From: Bacteroidota bacterium | Lineage (GTDB): Bacteria > Bacteroidota > Ignavibacteria > Ignavibacteriales > Melioribacteraceae | Reading direction: 5' to 3' | Assembly: GCA_018818165.1 (NCBI GenBank) | Contig: JAHISP010000014.1 | Coordinates: 11,875-75,874, forward strand | Length of the DNA: 64,000 nucleotides | Shown here: positions 11,504 to 50,880 of the stretch, piece after piece | Numbering within the stretch: the first letter of the stretch is position 1 | Layout of the letters: each line of letters opens with the position of its first letter | Notes under the pieces: model-generated | What the model was told of the DNA's origin: nothing | Database searches by the model: none | The model's input: the letters and a program-made list of their open reading frames with translations, nothing else | Position numbers and translations under genes: made by a program

Positions 11504-12856
11504 ATGAATACTTTAAATAGAATAAAATCACTACCTGAAACACAATCCCATATTATTTTAAATAGTATTGTTGAAGGTGTATTTACAGTAGATCAAGATT
11601 TAAGAATTACATATTTTAATAAAGCTGCTGAAAAAATTACTGGTGTAAGGGTGGAAAATGCACTTGGTGAATTTTGTTTTGAAGTGTTTAAGTCAAACCT
11701 TTGTGAAGTCTCATGTCCAATAAAAACCGCAATTTTAACTGGTTGCGATAGTATAAACCAAAAAGTAAATATTCTTAGATTTGATGGAAAAGAAATACCA
11801 ATTTCAATTAATGCGTCAGCTTTAAAAGATGAAGTTGGAAAAATAATTGGTGGAGTAGAGACTTTCCGCGATTTATCAACAATTGTAGCACTTAGAAAAG
11901 AGATTGAAAAAGGATATACATTTGAGGATATAGTTTCTAAAAACCACAAAATATTAGAACTTTTTAACATTCTTCCAAACATTTCTGAAAGTGAAGCTAC
12001 TGTTTTAATTCAAGGACCAAGTGGCTCGGGAAAGGAGCTTTTTGCTAGAGCAATTCACAACTTGAGTTTTAGAAAAAATGGACCCTTTATTGCAATTAAT
12101 TGCGGTGCTTTGCCAGATAATCTTCTTGAATCGGAACTATTTGGATATTATAAAGGAGCTTTTACTGATGCACAGAAAGATAAACCAGGAAGATTTGAAT
12201 TAGCCAAAGGTGGAACAATATTTCTTGACGAAGTTGAATCTCTTTCTCCTGCAACTCAAGTTAAGCTATTACGTGTTTTGCAGGAAAAGGAATTTGAACC
12301 ACTTGGTGCAACTAGTTCTGTTAAAACAAATGTTCGTATTATTTCTGCTACAAAAGACAACTTACTTGATTTAGTATCTCAAAATAAGTTTAGAGACGAT
12401 TTATATTTCCGATTGAATATTGTTAAAATTGAACTTCCATCATTAAAGGAAAGAAAGGACGATATTCCTTATCTAATTAATCATTTTATTGAGCTTTTCA
12501 ATTATAAAATGGAAAAGATGATTTCCTCGGTTTCAAATGAAGTTCTAGAATTTTTAATGAATTATTCATTCCCTGGAAATATTAGAGAACTTGAAAACAT
12601 CATTGAGCATGCCTTTGTAATGTGCCAAAATGAAGTTATAGAATTTGAAGATTTACCGAATGATTTAATAAATATGAGTACAAGCGAAATTCAATCTAAA
12701 AAGAATTTAATTCAACCAATTGAAAAATCGGAGTGTGATTTAATTTTTAGTACTTTAAAAAAACACGATTGGAATAAAATTGAAGTTGCAAAAGAACTTA
12801 AATTACATCGTTCAACTTTGTGGCGCAAAATGAGAAAATATGGACTTCTTCAATAA
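11504..12856 (+). CDS. Sigma54-dependent transcriptional activator with an N-terminal PAS domain
   Basis: PAS-like N-terminus. AAA+ core with GPSGSGKELFARAIH, ESELFGY and the GAFTDA loop. C-terminal Fis-type HTH (LKLHRSTLWRKMRKYGL). Confidence 0.9.
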   Translation: MNTLNRIKSLPETQSHIILNSIVEGVFTVDQDLRITYFNKAAEKITGVRVENALGEFCFEVFKSNLCEVSCPIKTAILTGCDSINQKVNILRFDGKEIPISINASALKDEVGKIIGGVETFRDLSTIVALRKEIEKGYTFEDIVSKNHKILELFNILPNISESEATVLIQGPSGSGKELFARAIHNLSFRKNGPFIAINCGALPDNLLESELFGYYKGAFTDAQKDKPGRFELAKGGTIFLDEVESLSPATQVKLLRVLQEKEFEPLGATSSVKTNVRIISATKDNLLDLVSQNKFRDDLYFRLNIVKIELPSLKERKDDIPYLINHFIELFNYKMEKMISSVSNEVLEFLMNYSFPGNIRELENIIEHAFVMCQNEVIEFEDLPNDLINMSTSEIQSKKNLIQPIEKSECDLIFSTLKKHDWNKIEVAKELKLHRSTLWRKMRKYGLLQ

Positions 12857-34585: not shown

Positions 34586-34695
34586 AATTTCTCCAAAGTT
34601 ATTTTTTACTTTTATTGTGCTAAATTTAGTAAAAAAATAGAAAATTTAAACTCTTAAATTGCTCTATCTGGTTTCTAGAGTTTTTTAACATATTG

Positions 34696-34898
34696 TTTGC
34701 ATAAAAAGATTATAATAACTAATTTTTGCAAAGATATTTAGTAAATGAGGTTAATGAATTACTCTGCTTTACTTACCCCAAATTATTAACCGAAAATTGT
34801 GTGAATAAACAAAAAGGTGGAACGTTATAATGCAAAAATTTGCTTGATAACATTCCAAATTGCAACATTTTGTTGCGGATTAATATATAGTTAGTTGC
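34696..34898 (+). repeat. Left-boundary partial/rearranged junction unit
   Basis: 34696-34728 (TTTGCATAAAAAGATTATAATAACTAATTTTTG) and about 34732-34760 match the 3' part of the full units. An AACGTTATAA remnant lies at 34821-34830. The unit ends in G|TTAGTTGC (34890-34898). Confidence 0.6.
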
Positions 34899-34912
34899 TT
34901 AAAGGAGTTTCT

Positions 34913-35368
34913 ATGAAAAAAAATGTAATCATTTTTACTTTCCTTTTAACTGGAATTGTTTTTTGTCAGTCTTCAATTACTGTTAATAAATTAAGCACAT
35001 TTCCTGAGGATTATATTAATAAGGAAATATCATTTAAAGATATTTGGTGGTATCCAACCTTGGCTAGCTATAAAAACGATATTGATGGAAAAACATATTA
35101 TCAAGTAATGTTACAAATTAGTGCCTCAAATGAAGAAAAACATTTTGGAATGGGAGGCATGGATAAAATTATGGGAGTTGTAAACAAAAACATTGCTATG
35201 GAATTAACGAATGATAATAAGAATGGCTATGTTTATAATTATTTAGGGGATGTTTTTGGCAAAGTGATTAAGACGAAAACATTTGGAAGCGAATACTTTT
35301 TTGTAATTAAAAAAATCATTCATCATTCCCCTGAAGGAATCATAATAAAAACTTATAATAGTAAATGA
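34913..35368 (+). CDS. Cassette 1a: small secreted protein, unknown function
   Basis: ATG at 34913 preceded by AAAGGAG. Signal peptide MKKNVIIFTFLLTGIVFCQ. The stop overlaps the start of the next ORF (ATGA). Confidence 0.7.
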   Translation: MKKNVIIFTFLLTGIVFCQSSITVNKLSTFPEDYINKEISFKDIWWYPTLASYKNDIDGKTYYQVMLQISASNEEKHFGMGGMDKIMGVVNKNIAMELTNDNKNGYVYNYLGDVFGKVIKTKTFGSEYFFVIKKIIHHSPEGIIIKTYNSK

Positions 35369-35967
35369 TGATGGATATTTTTAGAAAAATCCCACATAAT
35401 TTATATCGAGGTGATTCAGACTCTCGAAACGAGAGAAAGCTAAAACAAACAATTAATCAAAACTGTCTTCTAACAAATTTGAGTAACTCTGGTAGTGGCA
35501 GAGAAATTTTCAGTAATCCACTTAAAAATTTAGTCTCAAAACACATTTCTCCTGGCTGGAGCAAAACCCATTTCTTATCATTTTCGGAAAGCAAAAAAAT
35601 TAGTATAAAGTATGGTAGTAGACAGAACAATAATTGTATTTTAACAAATTTGGACGACTGGGATTTCGTTGTTATAGTTTTTTCTAAGGAATTTATAATT
35701 AAAGAAACAATTAGAGAAACTGATGAGGGATGTTTCATTTTGGAATTTTGTACTGCCTCATTAGAATTCCATCCAGTTTATAAATTACTTGCTATAAATG
35801 TTTACATCTATCTTTGTTCTAAAAATGCGGATAATAATCTCAAAGAAAAAGCAAAGTTAGATAAGGAGTGGTTATTACTTCCCTTAAATCGTTTTGAGAA
35901 TGAATATACAAGCAAATTGGATATGTGTTGTATTTCTTCAGTAGAAAAATATAAATCCATATACTAA
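35365..35967 (+). CDS. Cassette 1b: 200-aa cytoplasmic protein, unknown function (weak R-S-E ADP-ribosyltransferase-like pattern)
   Basis: Translationally coupled to cassette 1a. Contains LYRGD, HFLSFSES and later acidic residues (DKEWLLLP). The family assignment is speculative. Confidence 0.6.
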   Translation: MMMDIFRKIPHNLYRGDSDSRNERKLKQTINQNCLLTNLSNSGSGREIFSNPLKNLVSKHISPGWSKTHFLSFSESKKISIKYGSRQNNNCILTNLDDWDFVVIVFSKEFIIKETIRETDEGCFILEFCTASLEFHPVYKLLAINVYIYLCSKNADNNLKEKAKLDKEWLLLPLNRFENEYTSKLDMCCISSVEKYKSIY

Positions 35968-35982
35968 GTTTTAATAAATGGC

Positions 35983-36379
35983 GCAACTAACGTTATAAGG
36001 ATTGATACCGAACGGAGCTGAGGTATAATCCGGTGTTGAGCTAAGCCGCAGCTACTACTTGTAATTTGCTTAAATGTTTTTAGGGGTGGGGTTATTTTAT
36101 TTTACTACAATTTTACTTTTGCTATGAGTTGTTTTGAATTACAAAAACCTTCGAGGTTATTGCCAAATTAGAAATTGTTTGTGAAGATACAACCTTTATA
36201 AATTAAAAAACCTCGAAGGTTTGGGCGTATTGCAAAAAAATAATAATTTGCTAAAAAAGATTATAATAACTAATTTTTGTCCACAAAGGTTGATATGTAT
36301 TTAAGTGGGATGAAATGAATAAATGTGGATTTATGTTTTTTTGCTTATTTACGGATGAAATTCTTTAAAGTTATACCTA
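35983..36379 (+). repeat. Junction unit U1 (full, ~0.4 kb): module A + module B
   Basis: Starts GCAACTAAC|GTTATAAGGATTGATACC 16 nt after the stop codon and ends ...AATTCTTTAAAG|TTATACCTA. From 36076 on it looks ~95% identical by eye to U2. Confidence 0.85.
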
Positions 36380-36389
36380 GTAAAAAATA

Positions 36390-37325
36390 ATGGAGACAAA
36401 ATTGAAAGTTGAAGCGAATAATGCACTATTCATCAAGTTAGGTTCAAAAGGTCGTTGGCAAAACGAATGTATTGAGAAAAATATAATAAAATTGGGTTTT
36501 GTTAGCTCTCTTGAAATACATAAAAAAAGTTTAAATAGAGAGTGGGATAGTGTAAAAAAATATTGGCTTAAAGAAAAAAAGAGAAAAGCAGAAGCAACAA
36601 AAATTGCTAATCAAATTAAATATTTTTATGAATGTGATGAAGATACACTTTGGATAACTTTTATAGATAAAAAACTTTATTGGTGTTTTGCAGAAAGTGG
36701 AGTTACGATCTTAAATGATGGAAACAGAATAAGAAAAGTTAAAGGGAAATGGAGTTGTAAAGATATTGAAGGTAATGTATTATTTGACGAAAATATTGGT
36801 GGAGCTATTGCACAAGTCCAAAGGTTTCAAGGGACAATTTGTAAGGTTTCTGCAAAAGAACAGTTATTGGACATAATTAATCTTAATAAATCAAATGATT
36901 TAAGAAATGCTGAAAATATTTTTGCTAATCTAAAGGGTAGTATTGTACCATTAATTAAAAATCTACATTGGAAAGATTTTGAATTACTTGTTGATTTAAT
37001 TTTCACGTCTTCTGGTTGGAGGAGAATTTCTGTTGTTGGGAAAGCTGAAAAGGACGTTGATCTAGAGTTGATGCAAAATGTAACCGAGGAAAAAGCATTT
37101 GTTCAAATAAAATCTAGATCAACAATGAAAGAATTTAATGACTACATTCAGATATATAAAAGAGAGAAGCAGTATAATAAAATGTATTTTGTAGTAAATA
37201 ATCTTTCAAAAGATTTTAGTGGGTGGAAAGATACAAATGAAATTAAATTACTCGATAATGAAAAGCTTTCACTATTAGTTCTTAATTCTGGATTAGTTAA
37301 TTGGTTATTTAAAAAATCAAAATAG
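36390..37325 (+). CDS. Cassette 2: Mrr-type (PD-(D/E)xK) restriction-endonuclease-like domain with an unknown N-terminal domain
   Basis: The C-terminal FELLVDLIFTSSGWRRISVVGKAEKDVDLEL...AFVQIKSRS fits the Mrr_cat pattern (D...E/QxK). The ~190 N-terminal aa are not recognised. Confidence 0.65.
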   Translation: METKLKVEANNALFIKLGSKGRWQNECIEKNIIKLGFVSSLEIHKKSLNREWDSVKKYWLKEKKRKAEATKIANQIKYFYECDEDTLWITFIDKKLYWCFAESGVTILNDGNRIRKVKGKWSCKDIEGNVLFDENIGGAIAQVQRFQGTICKVSAKEQLLDIINLNKSNDLRNAENIFANLKGSIVPLIKNLHWKDFELLVDLIFTSSGWRRISVVGKAEKDVDLELMQNVTEEKAFVQIKSRSTMKEFNDYIQIYKREKQYNKMYFVVNNLSKDFSGWKDTNEIKLLDNEKLSLLVLNSGLVNWLFKKSK

Positions 37326-37762
37326 GTATAACGTTATAAGGATTGATACCGAACCCCACAAAAAGAACGGGGTAAACTCCGCTGAGGTATATCACTTTGT
37401 GAGAGCTAAGCCGCAGCTACGACTTGTAATTTGCTTTTATGTTTTTTGGGGTAGGGTTATTTTATTTTACTACAATTTTACTTTTGCTATGAGTTGTTTT
37501 GAATTACAAAAACCTTCGAGGTTATTGCCAAATAAGAAATTGTTTATGAAGACACAACTTTTATAAATTAAAAACCTCGAAGGTTTGGGCGTATTGTAAA
37601 AAAAATAATAATTTGCTAAAAAATATTATAATAACTAATTTTTGTCCACAAATGTTGATAGTATTTAATTGGGATGAAATGAATGAATATGGTTTTTTTT
37701 GCTCATTTCCAGACCTGTCCTCCAGTTTTTATGGTGGATAAAATTCTTTAAAGTTAGCCCAT
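37323..37762 (+). repeat. Junction unit U2 (full, ~0.44 kb): module A + module B
   Basis: Starts TAGGTATAAC|GTTATAAGGATTGATACC, where the TAG is the upstream stop codon. Ends ...AATTCTTTAAAG|TTAGCCCAT. Relative to U1 it has a 24-nt insertion in module A and a ~30-nt insertion near the 3' end. Confidence 0.85.
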
Positions 37763-37784
37763 ATAATCAAAAAGGAGAACGCAC

Positions 37785-38231
37785 ATGAACTATGCGCGAA
37801 TGTTTCACAAGATAGGATCGTGGTCTTACGTGCTTCTTGGCATTGGCCATATCGCAACCCATTTGTTTTCACCTAAAACGCCTGAACAAGAGCAAATGAT
37901 TTTGCGCATGAAAGATTTTGCCATCGACATGCCAGGACCAGATTCAACGCTTTTTTTGTTCCATGAAGGCTTCAGCTTAATGATGGGTGTATTACTAATT
38001 AGTTATGGGATAGCAAATATTCTTTTCCTTTCATCGGATAGCCTCGACTCATTGACAAACAAACATATTGCTATGCTAAACATAATTGTCTCTTTAGTGG
38101 CAATGATTTTATCTGCAGTTTATTTTTTTATTGTACCAATTGCGTTCACCACTGCGTCACTCATAGCATTCGGGTTGGCGTTTGGTCTAACGCGTCGTTC
38201 CACCAGACGCACAAAAGCAGCGCGCCAGTGA
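37785..38231 (+). CDS. Cassette 3: 148-aa four-TM membrane protein, visibly GC-richer than its surroundings
   Basis: A strong SD (AAAGGAG) lies 8 nt upstream. Hydrophobic segments and a basic tail RRSTRRTKAARQ. Composition looks roughly 40+% GC by eye, against about one-third elsewhere. Confidence 0.7.
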   Translation: MNYARMFHKIGSWSYVLLGIGHIATHLFSPKTPEQEQMILRMKDFAIDMPGPDSTLFLFHEGFSLMMGVLLISYGIANILFLSSDSLDSLTNKHIAMLNIIVSLVAMILSAVYFFIVPIAFTTASLIAFGLAFGLTRRSTRRTKAARQ

Positions 38232-38318
38232 ACCTAAACGTTATGTACAAATACTAATTAATATTTTTTATTGTCTATATCTGCAAAACGTCTATTTTGA
38301 AAAGGAAGTTTAATCTTT

Positions 38319-39284
38319 ATGTTAAAAAATCTATATCCATTATATCCTTATGGTAAACTTGATGTTCAGTCAGAAGCAATTCTTCAAGAGATAGCAAAAT
38401 CGAATGGAAAACCCCTTGCTTCTATGACACCCAAAGAAGCTAGGGAATGTTTTTTGGAAAATTCATGGCTTGGAGCGCCTGACAAAAGCATCCAAATAAA
38501 AAATATTTATATCGATAATTCCGATAGTAATATTCCATTACGTATTTATACGCCAGAAGGGGAAGCGCCATTCCCAATACTTCTATTTTTTCATGGTGGA
38601 GGATTTGTGTTAGGCACTTTAGACGAGTTTGATTCATTTTGCACATTTCTGGCTAGTGGAGCTAACTGCATAGTAGTTTCTGTTGGTTATCGTTTGGCTC
38701 CGGAGAACAAACATCCAGCCGCTGTTGAAGATGCTCAAACTGCACTTAATTGGATTGCTGTCAACGCTTCTAAAATTCAAGGTGATGTTTCTCGAATTGC
38801 AGTTGCCGGAGATAGTGCCGGTGCTAATTTAGCTGCGGTAGCTTCTTTAATTGCACGAGACAAATCATTTCCAACATTACTTTGCCAAATACTCATTTGT
38901 CCTTGGCTTAATCTTTCGTCAACAGAGACAAATTCATATAAATATTTCGGAAATGGATTATGGCTCTCAACTACCAATATTCATTGGTATCGTAATCACT
39001 ATTTAAAAAACGATGATCAAGCAAAAACATATTTAGCCTCACCGTTGCTAGCAAAAAAACTAAGTGGATTGCCTTTCACGTTAATTATTACTGCCGAATA
39101 TGATGTATTGAGAGACGAAGGAGAATCATATGCAAATCGTTTGGAAGAAGAATCCGTCGTTGTGAAATACACAAATTATAAGGGAATGCTTCATGATTTT
39201 GTTATGTTACCGGGAATATTTAACAAGGCAAAAGAAGCCATAAATGAAATATGTTCAACGTTAAGAATGATTTTTAAAAATTAA
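38319..39284 (+). CDS. Cassette 4: alpha/beta-hydrolase esterase/lipase, hormone-sensitive-lipase (family IV) type
   Basis: Oxyanion motif FFHGGGF, nucleophile elbow GDSAGAN, acid DVLRDEG and His in MLHDF. Confidence 0.9.
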   Translation: MLKNLYPLYPYGKLDVQSEAILQEIAKSNGKPLASMTPKEARECFLENSWLGAPDKSIQIKNIYIDNSDSNIPLRIYTPEGEAPFPILLFFHGGGFVLGTLDEFDSFCTFLASGANCIVVSVGYRLAPENKHPAAVEDAQTALNWIAVNASKIQGDVSRIAVAGDSAGANLAAVASLIARDKSFPTLLCQILICPWLNLSSTETNSYKYFGNGLWLSTTNIHWYRNHYLKNDDQAKTYLASPLLAKKLSGLPFTLIITAEYDVLRDEGESYANRLEEESVVVKYTNYKGMLHDFVMLPGIFNKAKEAINEICSTLRMIFKN

Positions 39285-39329
39285 AGAGCGTTTCTCATTA
39301 CTAATTTCAATTTGGAAATTGTACTTAAT

Positions 39330-39432
39330 TTTATAAGGATTGATACCGAATCCCACAAAAAGAACGGGGTAAACTCTGCTGAGGTATATCACTTTGTACG
39401 AGCTAAGCCGCAACCACTACTTGTAATTTGCT
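39330..39432 (+). repeat. Junction element copy 3 (module A only)
   Basis: TTTATAAGGATTGATACCGAATCCCACAAAAAGAACGGGGTAAACTCTGCTGAGGTATATCAC...GAGCTAAGCCGCAACCACTACTTGTAATTTGCT. Aligns with 37333-37435 with a few substitutions. Module B is absent. Confidence 0.85.
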
Positions 39433-39483
39433 ATGGCGTTTTATATGTTGCAGGGCAAACGCAACGTAAATCATAAAAAATAA

Positions 39484-39801
39484 TTAGGAAGAAATGGTTC
39501 TTGCAATTTCTTTATTTGATGTTCCAAGAGCCAATAACGACCTAATAATTAAATCTATTGATACCGACGGATCGCCAGTTTCTAATTTTGCAACTCTTGA
39601 TTGACTTGATTTAATCATTCTCGCAAATTCTATTTGTGTTAATTTTCGGTCAATTCGCAATTTTCTTAAATTGGCACTCAACTTTAGTTTCAAATCAATA
39701 TATGATTCTTCTTCTTCGGTTAGTCCAAGAAAATCTTTTACTGAACCAATTTTCCAACCTTTTTTCTCAAGTATTTCTTGTTTTTCACTAGTCATTGTCA
39801 T
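39484..39801 (-). CDS. higA: HigA-like antitoxin (XRE-family HTH)
   Basis: HTH LTQIEFARMIKSSQSRVAKLE. Lies downstream of, and overlaps, the toxin gene (the reversed TA order typical of higBA). Confidence 0.75.
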   Translation of the reverse strand: MTMTSEKQEILEKKGWKIGSVKDFLGLTEEEESYIDLKLKLSANLRKLRIDRKLTQIEFARMIKSSQSRVAKLETGDPSVSIDLIIRSLLALGTSNKEIARTISS

Positions 39802-40120
39802 ATTCCTTAATTCTTTTTTTGCATACATCAATTACGGCTTTAGGTGTTTGTTGTGTTTTCTTGTTAAAAACATCAAGAATTACAATTGCATCACTATCAA
39901 TTCTATAAATAATTCGCCAAGTAACATTTTCATCATTTATTCTAAGTTCATGGCAATTTTTACCAATACTTGGTATTGGTCTTGAATGAGGCATACTCAA
40001 CTTTTCTTCCATTTGAAGCAACCTGAAAAGAAATCCAGCTTCAATTCTTGCCGAAGCAGAAAAGGGGGGAGTTTTAATTTCTCCATACAGCCAAATAAGA
40101 GGTTTATCAGGTTTTTTCAT
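39788..40120 (-). CDS. higB: HigB/Gp49-like RelE-superfamily toxin
   Basis: Start taken at the ATG at 40120 (MKKPDKPLIW). The pattern ...SIGKNCHELRINDENVTWRIIYRIDSDAIVILDVFNKKTQQTPK matches Gp49/HigB-type toxins. Confidence 0.7.
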   Translation of the reverse strand: MKKPDKPLIWLYGEIKTPPFSASARIEAGFLFRLLQMEEKLSMPHSRPIPSIGKNCHELRINDENVTWRIIYRIDSDAIVILDVFNKKTQQTPKAVIDVCKKRIKEYDND

Positions 40121-40131
40121 ATTATAAATAT

Positions 40132-40147
40132 ATGTCAAATATGACAT
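40132..40147. promoter_or_regulatory. Palindromic candidate operator in the TA promoter
   Basis: ATGTCA-AATA-TGACAT, a perfect 6-bp inverted repeat 12 nt upstream of the toxin ATG. Confidence 0.4.
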
Positions 40148-40234
40148 AATTTCAACAAAATAAACCAAAAGGTAGAGATAAAAGTTTACAAAATGGGCTT
40201 ATTGAAGACTCGATTAAACAGTCAAGGCAAGAAA

Positions 40235-40295
40235 ACATAACATTTTAATTAAAACTAAAAAAACAAAAAATTTAAGTTCTAAAATTCCGTTATGT
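40235..40295. repeat. 61-nt attC-like imperfect hairpin at the right edge of the array
   Basis: ACATAAC-ATTTTA ... TAAAAT-TCC-GTTATGT. The 7-nt outer boxes (..AAC / GTT..) are perfectly complementary, the inner 6-nt boxes pair with a 3-nt bulge, and the centre is A-rich. Confidence 0.45.
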
Positions 40296-47248: not shown

Positions 47249-48607
47249 ATGTTTATAGATACACACACACATCTCTTTTTCAAAAATTTTGATGAAGATA
47301 GATACGAAGTAATTAAAAATGCTCTTGCTGCTGGAGTGAAATATATGATTGTTCCTGGAACCGATATTGAAACTTCCAGACAAGCTATTGAATTGGCAGA
47401 TAAATATGAATCCGTTTATGCCGCAGTTGGTGTTCATCCTCACGATACAAAGGATTGGGACGATAATTTAATAGATGAACTTCGCAAATTGGCAAAACAC
47501 AAAAAGGTAGTAGCAATTGGAGAAATTGGTCTCGATTATTTTTATGACTTTTCACCTAAAGATATTCAGCAAAAGGCATTTGATAAACAAATTCAATTAG
47601 CATTAGAACTTAATCTTCCAATAGTTATTCATAATCGTGATTCAAATGACGACATAATGGAATTTGCAAGAAAGTATAAAGATACGCCACTTAAGGCGCA
47701 ATATCATTGCTTTGCTGGCACAGTTGAAAATGCACGCGAACTTGTTGAAATGGGTCACTTTATTTCTTTTACCGGAAATATTACATTTAAAAAAGCTGAT
47801 TCTATTAGAGAAGTTTTATCAAAAGTGAGTGTCGAAAATATATTGCTTGAAACAGATTCCCCGTTTTTAACTCCAGTACCATTTCGTGGAAAACGAAATG
47901 AACCTAAACACATTCCAATAATTGCTCAAATAGTTGCGGAAACTCATCACCTTAGAGTTGAGGATGTGGCTCGTACAACTTCTTGGAATGCTTATAAATT
48001 ATTTGGAATAGGAAAAAAAATGAATTTAAGTCACACCTACCAAATAGGTGAATCACTTTATGTAAATGTTACAAACAGATGTAATGCCGATTGTGTTTTC
48101 TGCGATAGAAAAGGCGAAGCAGTAATTAATGGTTACAGTCTTAAAATGAGTAGAGCAGAAGAACCAGAAGCGGAGACGTATATTTCGGAAATAGGCGACC
48201 CAGCAAAGTATAAAGAAATTGTTTTTTGTGGATATGGTGAACCAACTATCAGATGGGAAGTTGTAAAGGAAATTGCAAAATACGTTAAAGAAAATGGTGG
48301 TAAAACTCGCATGAACAGTAATGGTCATGGTAATTTTATTAACAAGCGTGATATAACTCCAGAATTGAATGGATTAATAGATTCTGTTTCAATAAGCCTT
48401 AATTCTACAAGTGCTGAGCAATATGCAAAGTTAATGAGAGTTGACGAAACTCTTCATGCAGAAATGATTGATTTTGCCAAACGTGCTAAACGTTTTACTA
48501 AAATTGTTATGTCAATTGTTGGATTAAGTTCTGTTGATACCGAAAATGCCAAGCAATTTGTAACAAATGAAATTGGAGTAGATTTTAGAGAACGGGAGTA
48601 TTTTTAA
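47249..48607 (+). CDS. TatD-family metal-dependent hydrolase fused to a TatD-associated radical SAM domain
   Basis: N-terminal half: MFIDTHTHL, GEIGLDY, and the EVLSKVSVENILLETDSPFLTP region. C-terminal half: VTNRCNADCVFCDRKG (CxxxCxxC) plus FCGYGEP. Confidence 0.85.
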   Translation: MFIDTHTHLFFKNFDEDRYEVIKNALAAGVKYMIVPGTDIETSRQAIELADKYESVYAAVGVHPHDTKDWDDNLIDELRKLAKHKKVVAIGEIGLDYFYDFSPKDIQQKAFDKQIQLALELNLPIVIHNRDSNDDIMEFARKYKDTPLKAQYHCFAGTVENARELVEMGHFISFTGNITFKKADSIREVLSKVSVENILLETDSPFLTPVPFRGKRNEPKHIPIIAQIVAETHHLRVEDVARTTSWNAYKLFGIGKKMNLSHTYQIGESLYVNVTNRCNADCVFCDRKGEAVINGYSLKMSRAEEPEAETYISEIGDPAKYKEIVFCGYGEPTIRWEVVKEIAKYVKENGGKTRMNSNGHGNFINKRDITPELNGLIDSVSISLNSTSAEQYAKLMRVDETLHAEMIDFAKRAKRFTKIVMSIVGLSSVDTENAKQFVTNEIGVDFREREYF

Positions 48608-50025
48608 TGAGAAAAATGGTTGTTATTTTAATCGTTGTAATCCAAACATTAAATTTTGGACAAGAGAAAAAATTTACCACAACTGATGAATTAACATATC
48701 TTTTAAAGAATCCATTCTTTCGTAGATGTCAGATAGGTGTTGACGCTTATAACATTTCTAAAAAAGAAATTGTTTTTAGACACAATGAAAAATTGCTTTT
48801 TAGACCAGCATCAAATATGAAAATAATTACAACTGCTGCTGCTCTTCGCTTTCTTGGACCTGATTATAATTTTACAACTCAAATTAAATATGCTGGTGAA
48901 ATTATTAATGGCGTTTTAAACGGTAATCTTTATTTTGTTGGTGGTTTTGATCCAGATTTTACTTCTGCCGATTTGGACACAATGATTATAAAATTGAAAG
49001 ATAAAGGTATTAATAAAATAATCGGAAATATTTATGTGGATGTATCAAATATGGATTCACTGGATTGGGGACTTGGTTGGATGTGGGACGACGAGCCTTC
49101 ATACGACTTTCCGCATATGACTCCATTGCCAATTAACAATGCTTCATTGCAAGTTGCAATTTCTCCATCAAAGATTGGCGAAAAAGTAGTTTTAAAAACA
49201 ATTCCAGAATCAAATTATTTTAAATATACAAACAATATTTTTACTGTTGATAACGATACTTCCAATTTAGTATTAAGTAGAGATTGGATTAACTACAGTG
49301 ACTCACTAATTTTTGAAGGTGGATTATTTGTTGGTGCTGAGCCAGATACAATTACAATAAATCTAAAAAACACAAATCAATATTTTTTAACTCTTGCAAA
49401 AGAAGCATTGGATAAAAATAAAATTATTTTTGAAGGAAAATGTGGTGTTGAATCTGCTCCGCCAGAAGCAAAAACAATTGTAACCAAGCAACGTAATTTT
49501 GGAAAAGTAATTGTAAATCTTAACAAAACAAGCGATAATTTAAGTGCAGAAATGACGCTGCGCGCTTTAGCTTTTAATGAGTATGGTAAACTTGCTTCTG
49601 CTGAAAAAGGAGTTGAAGTTATTGATAGCCTAATCGTTGAAGTTGGTCTTAATCCAGAGGACTATAGAATAGTTGACGGTTCAGGAGTGTCGCATTACAA
49701 TCTCGTTTCTGTTGAGTTATTAAATGAAATATTAAGATATATGCAGCAATATCATCCAGAATTATTTTCTATTCTTTACGAATCATTCCCAATTGCTGGA
49801 GTTGACGGAACGCTTGATACAAGAATGAATGAAGGAAGGGCTTATAAAAATGTTCATGCAAAAACTGGAACGTTAAGTGGCGTGAGTTCGCTTTCGGGAT
49901 ATCTAACTTCAAAAAGTGGAGATCTAATTTCTTTTTCTATAAATACACAAAATTTTATTGGAAGTACAAGAACAGCGAGATACTTCCAAGACAAAATTTG
50001 CGAAATTCTATCAAACATGGAATAA
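48607..50025 (+). CDS. dacB: D-alanyl-D-alanine carboxypeptidase/endopeptidase (PBP4, S13 family)
   Basis: Active-site PASNMKI (SxxK), DGSGVS and KTGTL. Confidence 0.85.
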   Translation: MRKMVVILIVVIQTLNFGQEKKFTTTDELTYLLKNPFFRRCQIGVDAYNISKKEIVFRHNEKLLFRPASNMKIITTAAALRFLGPDYNFTTQIKYAGEIINGVLNGNLYFVGGFDPDFTSADLDTMIIKLKDKGINKIIGNIYVDVSNMDSLDWGLGWMWDDEPSYDFPHMTPLPINNASLQVAISPSKIGEKVVLKTIPESNYFKYTNNIFTVDNDTSNLVLSRDWINYSDSLIFEGGLFVGAEPDTITINLKNTNQYFLTLAKEALDKNKIIFEGKCGVESAPPEAKTIVTKQRNFGKVIVNLNKTSDNLSAEMTLRALAFNEYGKLASAEKGVEVIDSLIVEVGLNPEDYRIVDGSGVSHYNLVSVELLNEILRYMQQYHPELFSILYESFPIAGVDGTLDTRMNEGRAYKNVHAKTGTLSGVSSLSGYLTSKSGDLISFSINTQNFIGSTRTARYFQDKICEILSNME

Positions 50026-50028
50026 AAA

Positions 50029-50880
50029 ATGAAAACACACAAACAGTTTAATGTATCAACAACCCCATATAATGTTGATTTACTAAGTGGATTGCTCTGG
50101 CAGTTAGATATTGAAGGAATAAATGAGGATGATAATTCGCTTGTTATTTTTGCTACTGAAGAAAGTGGAGTTACAAAACTGGAAGTAGAATCACTCCTTT
50201 CCAAAGTTAGATTTGAAAATCTTATAGAAACATTTCTTGTTGTTGAAAGCAGCGTTGAAGAAATTAATTGGAATGAAGAATGGGAAAAGACAATTAATGT
50301 AATAGAAGTAAGTGATAAAATTGTAATAAAGCCAACCTTTAGAGAATATACTCCAAAAGAAAATCAGCTTGTTATAACTATTGATCCTAAAATGTCTTTT
50401 GGAACTGGCGAACATGAAACAACAAAATTGGTTTTGCAATTTTTGGATAAACACATAAAAGACTCAAAAAGAGTTTTGGATGTTGGTAGTGGAACGGGTG
50501 TATTGGGAATTGCAGCTGCATTACTTGGTGCTAATCACGTTGTTGGAATTGACAATGATGAGTGGTGCATCGAAAATGGATTAGAAAATATTGAATTGAA
50601 TAATCTTAATTCGAAAGTTGAAGTTAGACTTGCAGAAATTGACAAAGTAAAAGATGAACCTTTTGATTTAATTTTGGCAAATATTAATAGACACATTCTA
50701 ATTGATATAGCAGATTCTATCTTGAGACTTTCGAAATTAAAGGGAACTATAATTTTATCTGGATTATTATACACCGATAGAGAAGAAATTCTTAAACTCT
50801 ATGCTGGAATTGGGTTTAAGCTTGTTGAAGAAAAAAGACTTAACGAATGGATAGCTTTGGTTTTAATTAATGACAATTGA
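50029..50880 (+). CDS. prmA: Ribosomal protein L11 methyltransferase
   Basis: IDPKMSFGTGEHETTKL and the SAM motif VLDVGSGTGVLGIAA. Confidence 0.9.
   Translation: MKTHKQFNVSTTPYNVDLLSGLLWQLDIEGINEDDNSLVIFATEESGVTKLEVESLLSKVRFENLIETFLVVESSVEEINWNEEWEKTINVIEVSDKIVIKPTFREYTPKENQLVITIDPKMSFGTGEHETTKLVLQFLDKHIKDSKRVLDVGSGTGVLGIAAALLGANHVVGIDNDEWCIENGLENIELNNLNSKVEVRLAEIDKVKDEPFDLILANINRHILIDIADSILRLSKLKGTIILSGLLYTDREEILKLYAGIGFKLVEEKRLNEWIALVLINDN

Follow-up and report, generated by a model that had tools for sequence, protein, structure and literature searches.

How did a short series of unrelated genes come to be bracketed, each of them, by a pair of complementary end sequences of its own? The question is raised by a locus on contig JAHISP010000014.1 of assembly GCA_018818165.1, of which positions 11,875 to 75,874 were analysed (64,000 nt; this stretch is called the window below, and its own numbering is used). 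The host of the locus is an uncultured Melioribacteraceae/Ignavibacteriota-like bacterium, and the genes that flank it have their closest named relatives in Melioribacteraceae/Ignavibacteria. The segment 34890-39445 is very likely an integron-type gene-cassette array of four cassettes, all oriented along the + strand and seated in a 5.6-kb island (34668-40255). Since no integrase was found on the contig or beside the other arrays inspected, the array resembles those attC-site clusters that have no integron integrase (CALIN) in the terminology of IntegronFinder (Cury et al. 2016, PMC4889954; Neron et al. 2022, PMC9024848).

The three end pairs listed by the original prediction, which had been made from the sequence alone, are present exactly where it placed them. 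Cassette 1 opens with the R' box GTTAGTTGC (34890-34898) and closes with R'' GCAACTAAC (35983-35991; 9/9 complementary); cassette 2 opens with GTTATACCTA (36370-36379) and closes with TAGGTATAAC (37323-37332; 10/10), which contains the stop codon TAG; cassette 4 runs from GTTATGTACAA (38240-38250) to a decayed R'', TTGTACTTAAT (39319-39329; 9/11), where TAAC has become TAAT. Cassette 3 had been described as starting at 37754 without any 3' box, and a deletion had been supposed at the 38237 junction; both points have to be corrected, as TTTGGTCTAAC (38181-38191) matches the 5' edge GTTAGCCCATA (37753-37763) at 9 of 11 positions and opens a complete short attC that sits at the supposed deletion. 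All four cassettes carry the core (R', GTTRRRY) and inverse core (R'', RYYYAAC) of integron boxes, starting with GTTA and ending in TAAC (TAAT in cassette 4), as is also true of the 18 cassettes compared below, and it was inaccurate that only GTT/AAC is common to them, most sharing GTTA/TAAC. The self-pairing of the four cassettes (9/9, 10/10, 9/11 and 9/11) agrees with the 9-11 nt of R''/R' self-pairing that are normal in integron cassettes (Bouvier et al. 2009, PMC2727003).

The matched ends are real, general and far above chance. As a control, the 57 ATG-initiated open reading frames (ORFs) of at least 100 aa in the window were each scored for the longest perfect complementary run, anchored on GTT...AAC, that their 5' flank forms with their 3' flank. 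Comparable pairs at a similar frequency around random ORFs, which would have spoken against the prediction, did not appear: the run was 6 nt or shorter in 55 of the 57, one ORF had 8 nt, and cassette 2 had 10. The 8-nt pair, GTTGATAC/GTATCAAC (48533-48540 and 50053-50060), flanks the ORF at 48607-50025, which is the sole background ORF above 6 nt, and is probably due to chance. For comparison with other loci, the motif of the repeat that lies between the window cassettes was searched in genome and metagenome collections, and a covariance model then gave further copies. Homologous elements were retrieved by motif from L004, L007, L010, L014-L017, L019, L020, L023 and L024; the scan hits L001-L003, L005, L006, L008, L009, L018, L021 and L022 are chance matches, and viral contigs held no copy of the hairpin motif. 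In 18 cassettes from 10 independent loci (the window, the repeat-motif loci, and further cassettes from L010, L017, L019, L038 and L042) the true pairs measure 8-13 nt with a median of 10, against a median of 5 in 302 mismatched cassette/flank combinations, whose few high values are due to homologous cassettes with common ends. In nearly every cassette with upstream DNA available, the 14 nt preceding the repeat element recur in perfect reverse complement a short way upstream of the ORF.

Many homologues of cassette 2 were found, and whether these have matched ends depends on where they lie. The homologue P0126 (54% aa identity), located in array L038 (5085-6055) and also in L039 and L040, has the same end pair, GTTATACCTAT...ATAGGTATAAC, with the stop codon again inside R'', and is followed by an unrelated canonical long attC. 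A second homologue, P0144, belongs to a GC-rich array (L042) and has a 13/13 pair of its own, GTTAGGCCGCCAC/GTGGCGGCCTAAC. The homologues that lie outside arrays (L035, L044) lack an end pair and reach only 3-4 nt. The expectation that homologous cassettes elsewhere keep matched ends was therefore borne out by the array homologues, the non-array ones having none. The combination of identical R boxes with a different attC in P0126 is a hint of exchange immediately behind R'' or of selection for the R box. The central claim of the prediction is upheld by all this: the elements are integron-type cassettes, and crossover at G|TT would account for the pairing of their first bases with their own R''; the same pairing is seen in every complete cassette examined elsewhere.

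The attC sites themselves were assigned from boxes, end pairing and folds. The site of cassette 3 (38181-38246, + strand), canonical and 66 nt long, consists of R'' TTTGGTCTAAC, an imperfect palindrome with a bulged stem, and the R' box GTTATGT of cassette 4. The last part of the ORF lies within this site, which is unrelated to the sites of cassettes 1, 2 and 4. When circularised, its bottom strand folds at -13.9 kcal/mol (z = -2.66) and its top strand at -7.4. The attC of the other three cassettes is most likely the hairpin of ~44-70 nt that directly follows R''. In cassette 1 this body (35992-36041, + strand) comprises the spacer GTTATAA, the L'' arm GGATTgATACC (35999-36009) with an unpaired G, a 12-nt loop, the L' arm GGTATAATCC (36022-36031), GGT, and the core GTTGAGC (36035-36041), so that the spacers on the two sides of the stem are 7 and 3 nt long; in the circular form the site folds into an R box, a bubble, an L box with one bulge and a loop (z = -3.3 and -3.6). 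The body of cassette 2 (37333-37402, + strand) has an extra apical stem-loop (CCCC 37354-37357 / GGGG 37369-37372), an altered L' and a degenerate GTT core (GTGAGAGC), and its circular form folds with z = -2.7. That of cassette 4 (39330-39445, + strand) is a long variant, 89% identical to 37329-37445, which includes ~45 nt of a truncated gene-less unit; its similarity to the other repeats stops near 39445.

The usual range of attC sites is roughly 55-150 nt. The window sites measure 61-91 nt when taken as R'', the 44-70-nt hairpin and R', 66 nt in cassette 3, and 380-440 nt if the whole repeat is counted. The reconstructed circular sites of cassettes 1 and 2 and of a 516-aa cassette in L004 (61-91 nt, z = -1.7 to -5.1) all fold into an R box (9-10 bp) and, beyond an asymmetric bubble, a 10-bp L box that contains one unpaired base and is topped by a loop. 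The hairpin module is conserved in 15 copies from 11 loci and ends in a perfect GTTRRRY in 10 of them, and in its size variants (37333-37402 and 39330-39399 in the window; L010) an additional stem-loop sits at the apex, the part in which attCs vary. Related arrays also contain canonical sites, such as that of L014, R''(AGCTAAC)-C-L''(AGCGTTTcAGCCCGaCCGC)...L'(GCGGCGGGCTAAACGC)-AACGCC-R'(GTTATGT); comparable ones are present in L016, L010, L023, L017 and L038, and in L014, L016 and L038 the L'' of the top strand has two bases more, a C and an A.

The window sites share with classical attCs (Bouvier et al. 2009, PMC2727003) the R'' ...AAC and R' GTT... cores, the L''/L' stem, the unpaired R-L spacer, the variable apex, the R''/R' self-pairing of 9-11 nt in the circle and, if the hairpin is the site, the reconstructed size, as well as the unpaired G in L'', which is a described attC feature (PMC2727003). 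They differ from them in that the L arms of the hairpin are almost invariant in sequence across distant samples, whereas classical sites are usually conserved in structure alone, and in that the hairpin has a single extrahelical base, an asymmetric spacer (7 vs 3 nt) and strands that fold about equally (-10.1 vs -11.1 and -13.6 vs -13.8 kcal/mol).

The second component of the array is the repeat of 380-420 nt situated between cassettes 1 and 2 and between cassettes 2 and 3; after cassette 4 only its first ~115 nt are present. Its copies 1 and 2 differ before the GTTRRRY core, while from 36038 onwards copy 1 is 95% identical over 172 nt to 37403-37574. What follows the core is a gene-less unit. 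Unit 1 (36036-36370, + strand) starts with TTGAGCTAAGCC, is bounded on both sides by GTT cores (36035, 36370), and contains a 13-bp inverted repeat (36146-36158 / 36209-36221), a promoter-like box (36259-36279) and a leader ending in AAATTCTTTAAAG; unit 2 (37403-37753, + strand) has its promoter-like box at 37624-37644. Neither contains an ORF or matches Rfam. A partial unit with a promoter-like box (34708-34728) and a leader and no attC hairpin lies upstream of cassette 1 (34683-34889, + strand); it resembles the promoter-like segment that the inter-cassette repeats contain (66% similarity). Within it, GGAACGTTATAATGC at 34821-34835 resembles the R''|hairpin junction (AAC|GTTATAA) and may be a remnant of an older site.

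Related arrays, too, show a mosaic boundary at the core. Unrelated upstream cassettes in L004 and L020 are followed by shared sequence downstream of the GTTRRRY core, where 4 differences (at 3 sites) fall in the first 45 nt and the ~119 nt after these are identical, and L004 also has identical hairpins with differing sequences beyond the core. The gene-less unit of L004, counted from the core, ends in GGCTTAGTTCAAC (12/13 complementary) and then has attC-like arms of its own, judged by eye and not folded, which reach the G|TT of the next cassette. In L010 an array-state site is formed by R'' (GGCTTAGTTCAAC) and R' (GTTGAGCTAAGCC), complementary at 12 of 13 positions (z = -5.8).

Two of these arrays show further arrangements. 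L010 has two tandem copies of the gene-less module ending in GGCTTAGTTCAAC, and on its - strand (~1400-1390) R'' (GGCTTAGTTCAAC) and the hairpin have between them a bare GTTAAC palindrome, at the place where other arrays seat ORF cassettes. In L019 (- strand, ~1941 to 1290) a 205-aa cassette with a perfect 12-nt end pair is followed by only TCGCC (5 nt) before the GTTATGCCTA of the next cassette, essentially no attC body being left.

Taken together with established integron biology, the anatomy suggests how such an array would have been assembled. Each protein-coding cassette would once have been a circle with one folded attC site, and an IntI-type tyrosine recombinase, acting in trans, would have crossed this circle over at G|TT; the recombinase and the strand it used are what we infer from the anatomy. 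Crossover at this point would make the first 8-10 nt of the linear cassette (R') the partners of its far-end R''. The rest of the repeat (~335-350 nt) would be a conserved gene-less unit reaching from the core (TTGAGCTAAGCC...) to the G|TT at which the next cassette was inserted. The circle junction of cassette 1 would then read ...CCGGTG|TTAGTTGC if the attC is short, or ...TTCTTTAAAG|TTAGTTGC if the site is the whole repeat, and the empty junction would be expected to read TTCTTTAAAG|TTGAGCTAAGCC.

The gene-less units may be compared with the gene-less promoter cassettes that occur in Vibrionaceae superintegrons (Blanco et al. 2024, PMC11014356). Like these, the window units are non-coding, stand between coding cassettes on the sense strand and have promoter-like sequence facing the next cassette, and by analogy with Vibrio they probably supply transcription to it. 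Unlike the Vibrionaceae promoter cassettes, which are sporadic, a homologous unit precedes almost every ORF cassette here; moreover, the window copies have no R'' of their own, and their promoter, like all the promoters mentioned in this work, is a consensus match. The best match of the sigma-70 type in the region is formed by the hairpin arms themselves, which read TTGATA-16-TATAAT (36002-36029; 11/12 matches to consensus) and point downstream. In the copies with apical insertions (37333-37402, 39330-39399) the promoter-like spacing is lost and the stem is kept, so the structure appears to be the primary constraint. As a tentative and rather doubtful extension of the cassette model, the attC hairpin might double as an outward promoter, its arms being the -35 and -10 boxes, so that each cassette would be paired with a gene-less leader and the array would express itself without Pc, while attC bodies would in addition be swapped at the R''|body junction; the cassette 2 homologue with identical R boxes and a different attC fits such a swap. 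If true, a promoter-like hairpin with one leader per cassette would bear on cassette expression far from Pc or in integrase-less clusters, an incremental question that involves no new principle, and attC-body swapping would mean that crossover on the top strand, or of a non-canonical kind, is routine and may occur where no IntI is resident.

The integrase itself was sought at several levels. The Phage_integrase domain was absent from the Pfam scans of 40 window ORFs and from the gene tables of the whole contig, no recombinase gene is present in the island 34668-40255, and a search around the homologous cassettes gave no integrase. The contig accordingly does not hold a complete integron, with intI adjacent to attI and a first cassette; what it does hold is four + strand sites within 3.5 kb (starts at 35983, 37323, 38181 and 39319), which corresponds to a CALIN, for which two or more attC sites have to lie on the same strand within 4 kb, with no intI nearby. 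CALINs without a nearby intI are common, and half are in genomes lacking intI (PMC4889954); complete integrons are already known from Ignavibacteriae (PMC9024848). The resemblance extends to the co-oriented cassettes, each ending in an attC-like site with no intI within reach, to the small size of the array (four cassettes), to cargo that is unknown or accessory and to a seat in a chromosomal island. Unlike in a usual CALIN, three of the four window sites are members of a single conserved hairpin family, which always has a gene-less unit of ~340 nt behind it, and the island is bordered by a 38-nt direct repeat.

Several results weigh against an assembly by integron recombination. No integron integrase is encoded on the 76.8-kb contig, which leaves the recombinase as an inferred component, nor was one found beside the four other arrays examined (L004, L017, L038, L042). 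The hairpin is always followed by the homologous TTGRRCTAAGCC gene-less unit, an ORF cassette coming directly after it in 0 of 15 copies, which is unexpected for a freely used crossover core. The gene-less units of the window have no R'' of their own, and GTTGAGCTAAGCC has no partner inside the window repeats. The hairpin shows no covariation, all 10 pairs of the alignment fold being invariant. Finally, no gain or loss of cassettes at the strain level was seen among near-identical assemblies: all those carrying the identical flanking gene have the same four cassettes, and current mobility is therefore without support.

A different reading would make the whole 380-440-nt repeat a single giant attC, with R''/L'' at the left and L'/R' at the right end, the hairpin, inverted repeat and promoter-like box between them being variable terminal structure, and with crossover solely at the right-hand G|TT. 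The repeat as a whole is indeed flanked by R'' and R', and in the circular form its ends pair in both the minimum free energy and the centroid folds, with an extension of 9 imperfect bp. This extension corresponds to the imperfect pairing beside the boxes from which the original prediction placed the L boxes at the extremities of the repeat. The pairing exists (GTTATAAGGATT against AATTCTTTAAA, 9 bp with 2 mismatches and 1 bulge), but it is weak and AT-rich and is not conserved in L004 and L020, where the right end of the repeat is GGATAACACGCC. Related arrays hold canonical attCs with variable regions of 180-230 nt, and L017 has the same left and right repeat ends with a different middle; nevertheless, a length of 380-580 nt lies far beyond the usual attC range, the last window copy (39330-39445) and the copy in L014 hold the left part only, and L004 and L020 keep one repeat despite differing in the upstream cassette that would own it. 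Since the hairpin after R'' (~44 nt) already yields an attC of canonical size, and since the GTTRRRY core, at which the copies cease to be similar, lies inside the repeat, one attC probably does not span the whole of it, and we consider the giant site unlikely.

Returning to short attC sites followed by gene-less units, one may ask whether IntI was the enzyme. A different recombinase might act at the AAC|GTT junctions, the ORF units with their own terminal inverted repeats being slotted between static scaffold repeats. No IntI lies near any of the five arrays, the cassette 2 homologue with the same R'/R'' and another attC body suggests exchange right after R'', and both the 5-nt interval in L019 and the bare GTTAAC of L010 would suit such a scheme. 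Nevertheless, the AAC/GTT cores, the extrahelical bases in L'' and, in cassette 3, the fold favouring the bottom strand all match IntI substrates, no alternative recombinase gene recurs beside the arrays, and CALINs lacking a nearby intI are common; we regard this explanation as quite improbable.

An origin without any recombination, in which the repeat would be an element resembling a miniature inverted-repeat transposable element (MITE) or a duplicated regulatory element (promoter, terminator and structured RNA together) and the ends would pair 5' with 3' in the mRNA, is scarcely tenable, for although the hairpin is highly conserved in sequence, has near-consensus -35/-10 boxes and G.T pairs favouring the sense strand, and the repeat copies are 95% identical, the end pairs are cassette-specific, are equally present where the attC is of an unrelated type and where the array is GC-rich, always begin with GTT and finish with AAC, and are accompanied by no target-site duplications around the repeats (as the original prediction rightly stated), while the apical insertions ruin the promoter spacing and keep the stem, no Rfam family matches, and pairing in the mRNA provides no mechanism for matching ends on unrelated genes.

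Known RNA families gave nothing relevant in Rfam, either at the gathering threshold over the window or at E <= 5 over the region, and no tRNA or tmRNA genes were found. A structured RNA in the first ~115 nt of the repeat was given up as the main explanation, the single-sequence folds being no better than those of shuffled sequences and the 10 alignment pairs showing no covariation; a hammerhead-like GAAC...CUGA was dismissed by eye, since short variants have only a 12-nt loop there. A dif/Xer-type module was discarded on account of the cassette-specific arms and wrong spacing. Insertion of a MITE or an IS200/IS605-like element at TAAC|GTTA was also rejected, because the flanks of the repeat belong to different cassettes and do not make up a split palindrome, and because end pairs also occur with unrelated attC types.

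The array in the window is a new example of a known system, matched ends being a known signature of integron cassettes, and its arrangement of attC sites and gene-less units is mildly unusual. It adds an unannotated array to a phylum in which integrons are known yet little described, and it shows that cassettes can be recognised from raw sequence by end complementarity alone. As three of its four sites belong to a hairpin family of conserved sequence, behind which a long gene-less unit follows, arrays of this kind may be mis-segmented by tools designed for a single structure-only attC of at most 200 nt per cassette. In having a homogeneous attC family after unrelated cassettes of one array, and a toxin-antitoxin module within the array region, the locus is similar to the Vibrio cholerae repeats (VCRs) of sedentary chromosomal integrons; it differs from VCR arrays in its tiny size, in having no adjacent intI/attI platform, and in one cassette with a foreign, unrelated attC.

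The island that carries the array is flanked by an imperfect 38-nt direct repeat, the left copy of which (34630-34667) is 79% identical to the right one (40256-40293). The upstream neighbour of cassette 1 is a DUF2461 gene. In relatives with 77% and 70% identical DUF2461 genes this gene abuts a histidine kinase gene with no island between them, so that 34668-40255 is an insertion, and the empty sites of the relatives L031 (4561-4682) and L033 (9901-10000) contain the 38-nt repeat as a single copy. The toxin-antitoxin module, a HigB/HigA-like pair, lies inside the island on the - strand, opposite to the cassettes, and consists of an HTH_3 antitoxin (39484-39831) and a Gp49/ParE-like toxin (39788-40168); it is absent from the empty sites. 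Matching ends that would make this pair a reversed cassette were sought, and no convincing pair was found.

The cargo is typical of cassettes. Cassette 1 (34913-35967, + strand) carries two overlapping ORFs, 34913-35368 (151 aa) and 35365-35967 (200 aa), with no family match for either. Cassette 2 (36390-37325, + strand) encodes a Mrr_cat restriction-endonuclease-like protein of 311 aa (Pfam PF04471) with a weak PADLOC match to PDC-S02, and cassette 4 (38319-39284, + strand) an Abhydrolase_3 / LipP1-like esterase of 321 aa. The related arrays carry MNT/HEPN and BrnT toxin-antitoxin pairs, restriction-like proteins and small unknown ORFs. Cassette 3 (37785-38231, + strand), which encodes a LIC_13387-family protein of 148 aa, stands apart by its DNA of ~39% GC against ~29% in the surroundings; its ribosome-binding site, AAGGAG, is also strong, and its attC is GC-rich and belongs to a separate family. 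Its GC content, ribosome-binding site and unrelated attC suggest that it was acquired from a different host lineage.

A last observation concerns L004, where a tandem repeat with units such as GAAGCCATCTTGCAG / GAAGTCATCTTGCAG occupies positions 2680-2850, within a 1.25-kb stretch without long ORFs between relA and the first cassette. The tandem repeat may belong to an attI-like region or be the trace of a decayed gene.

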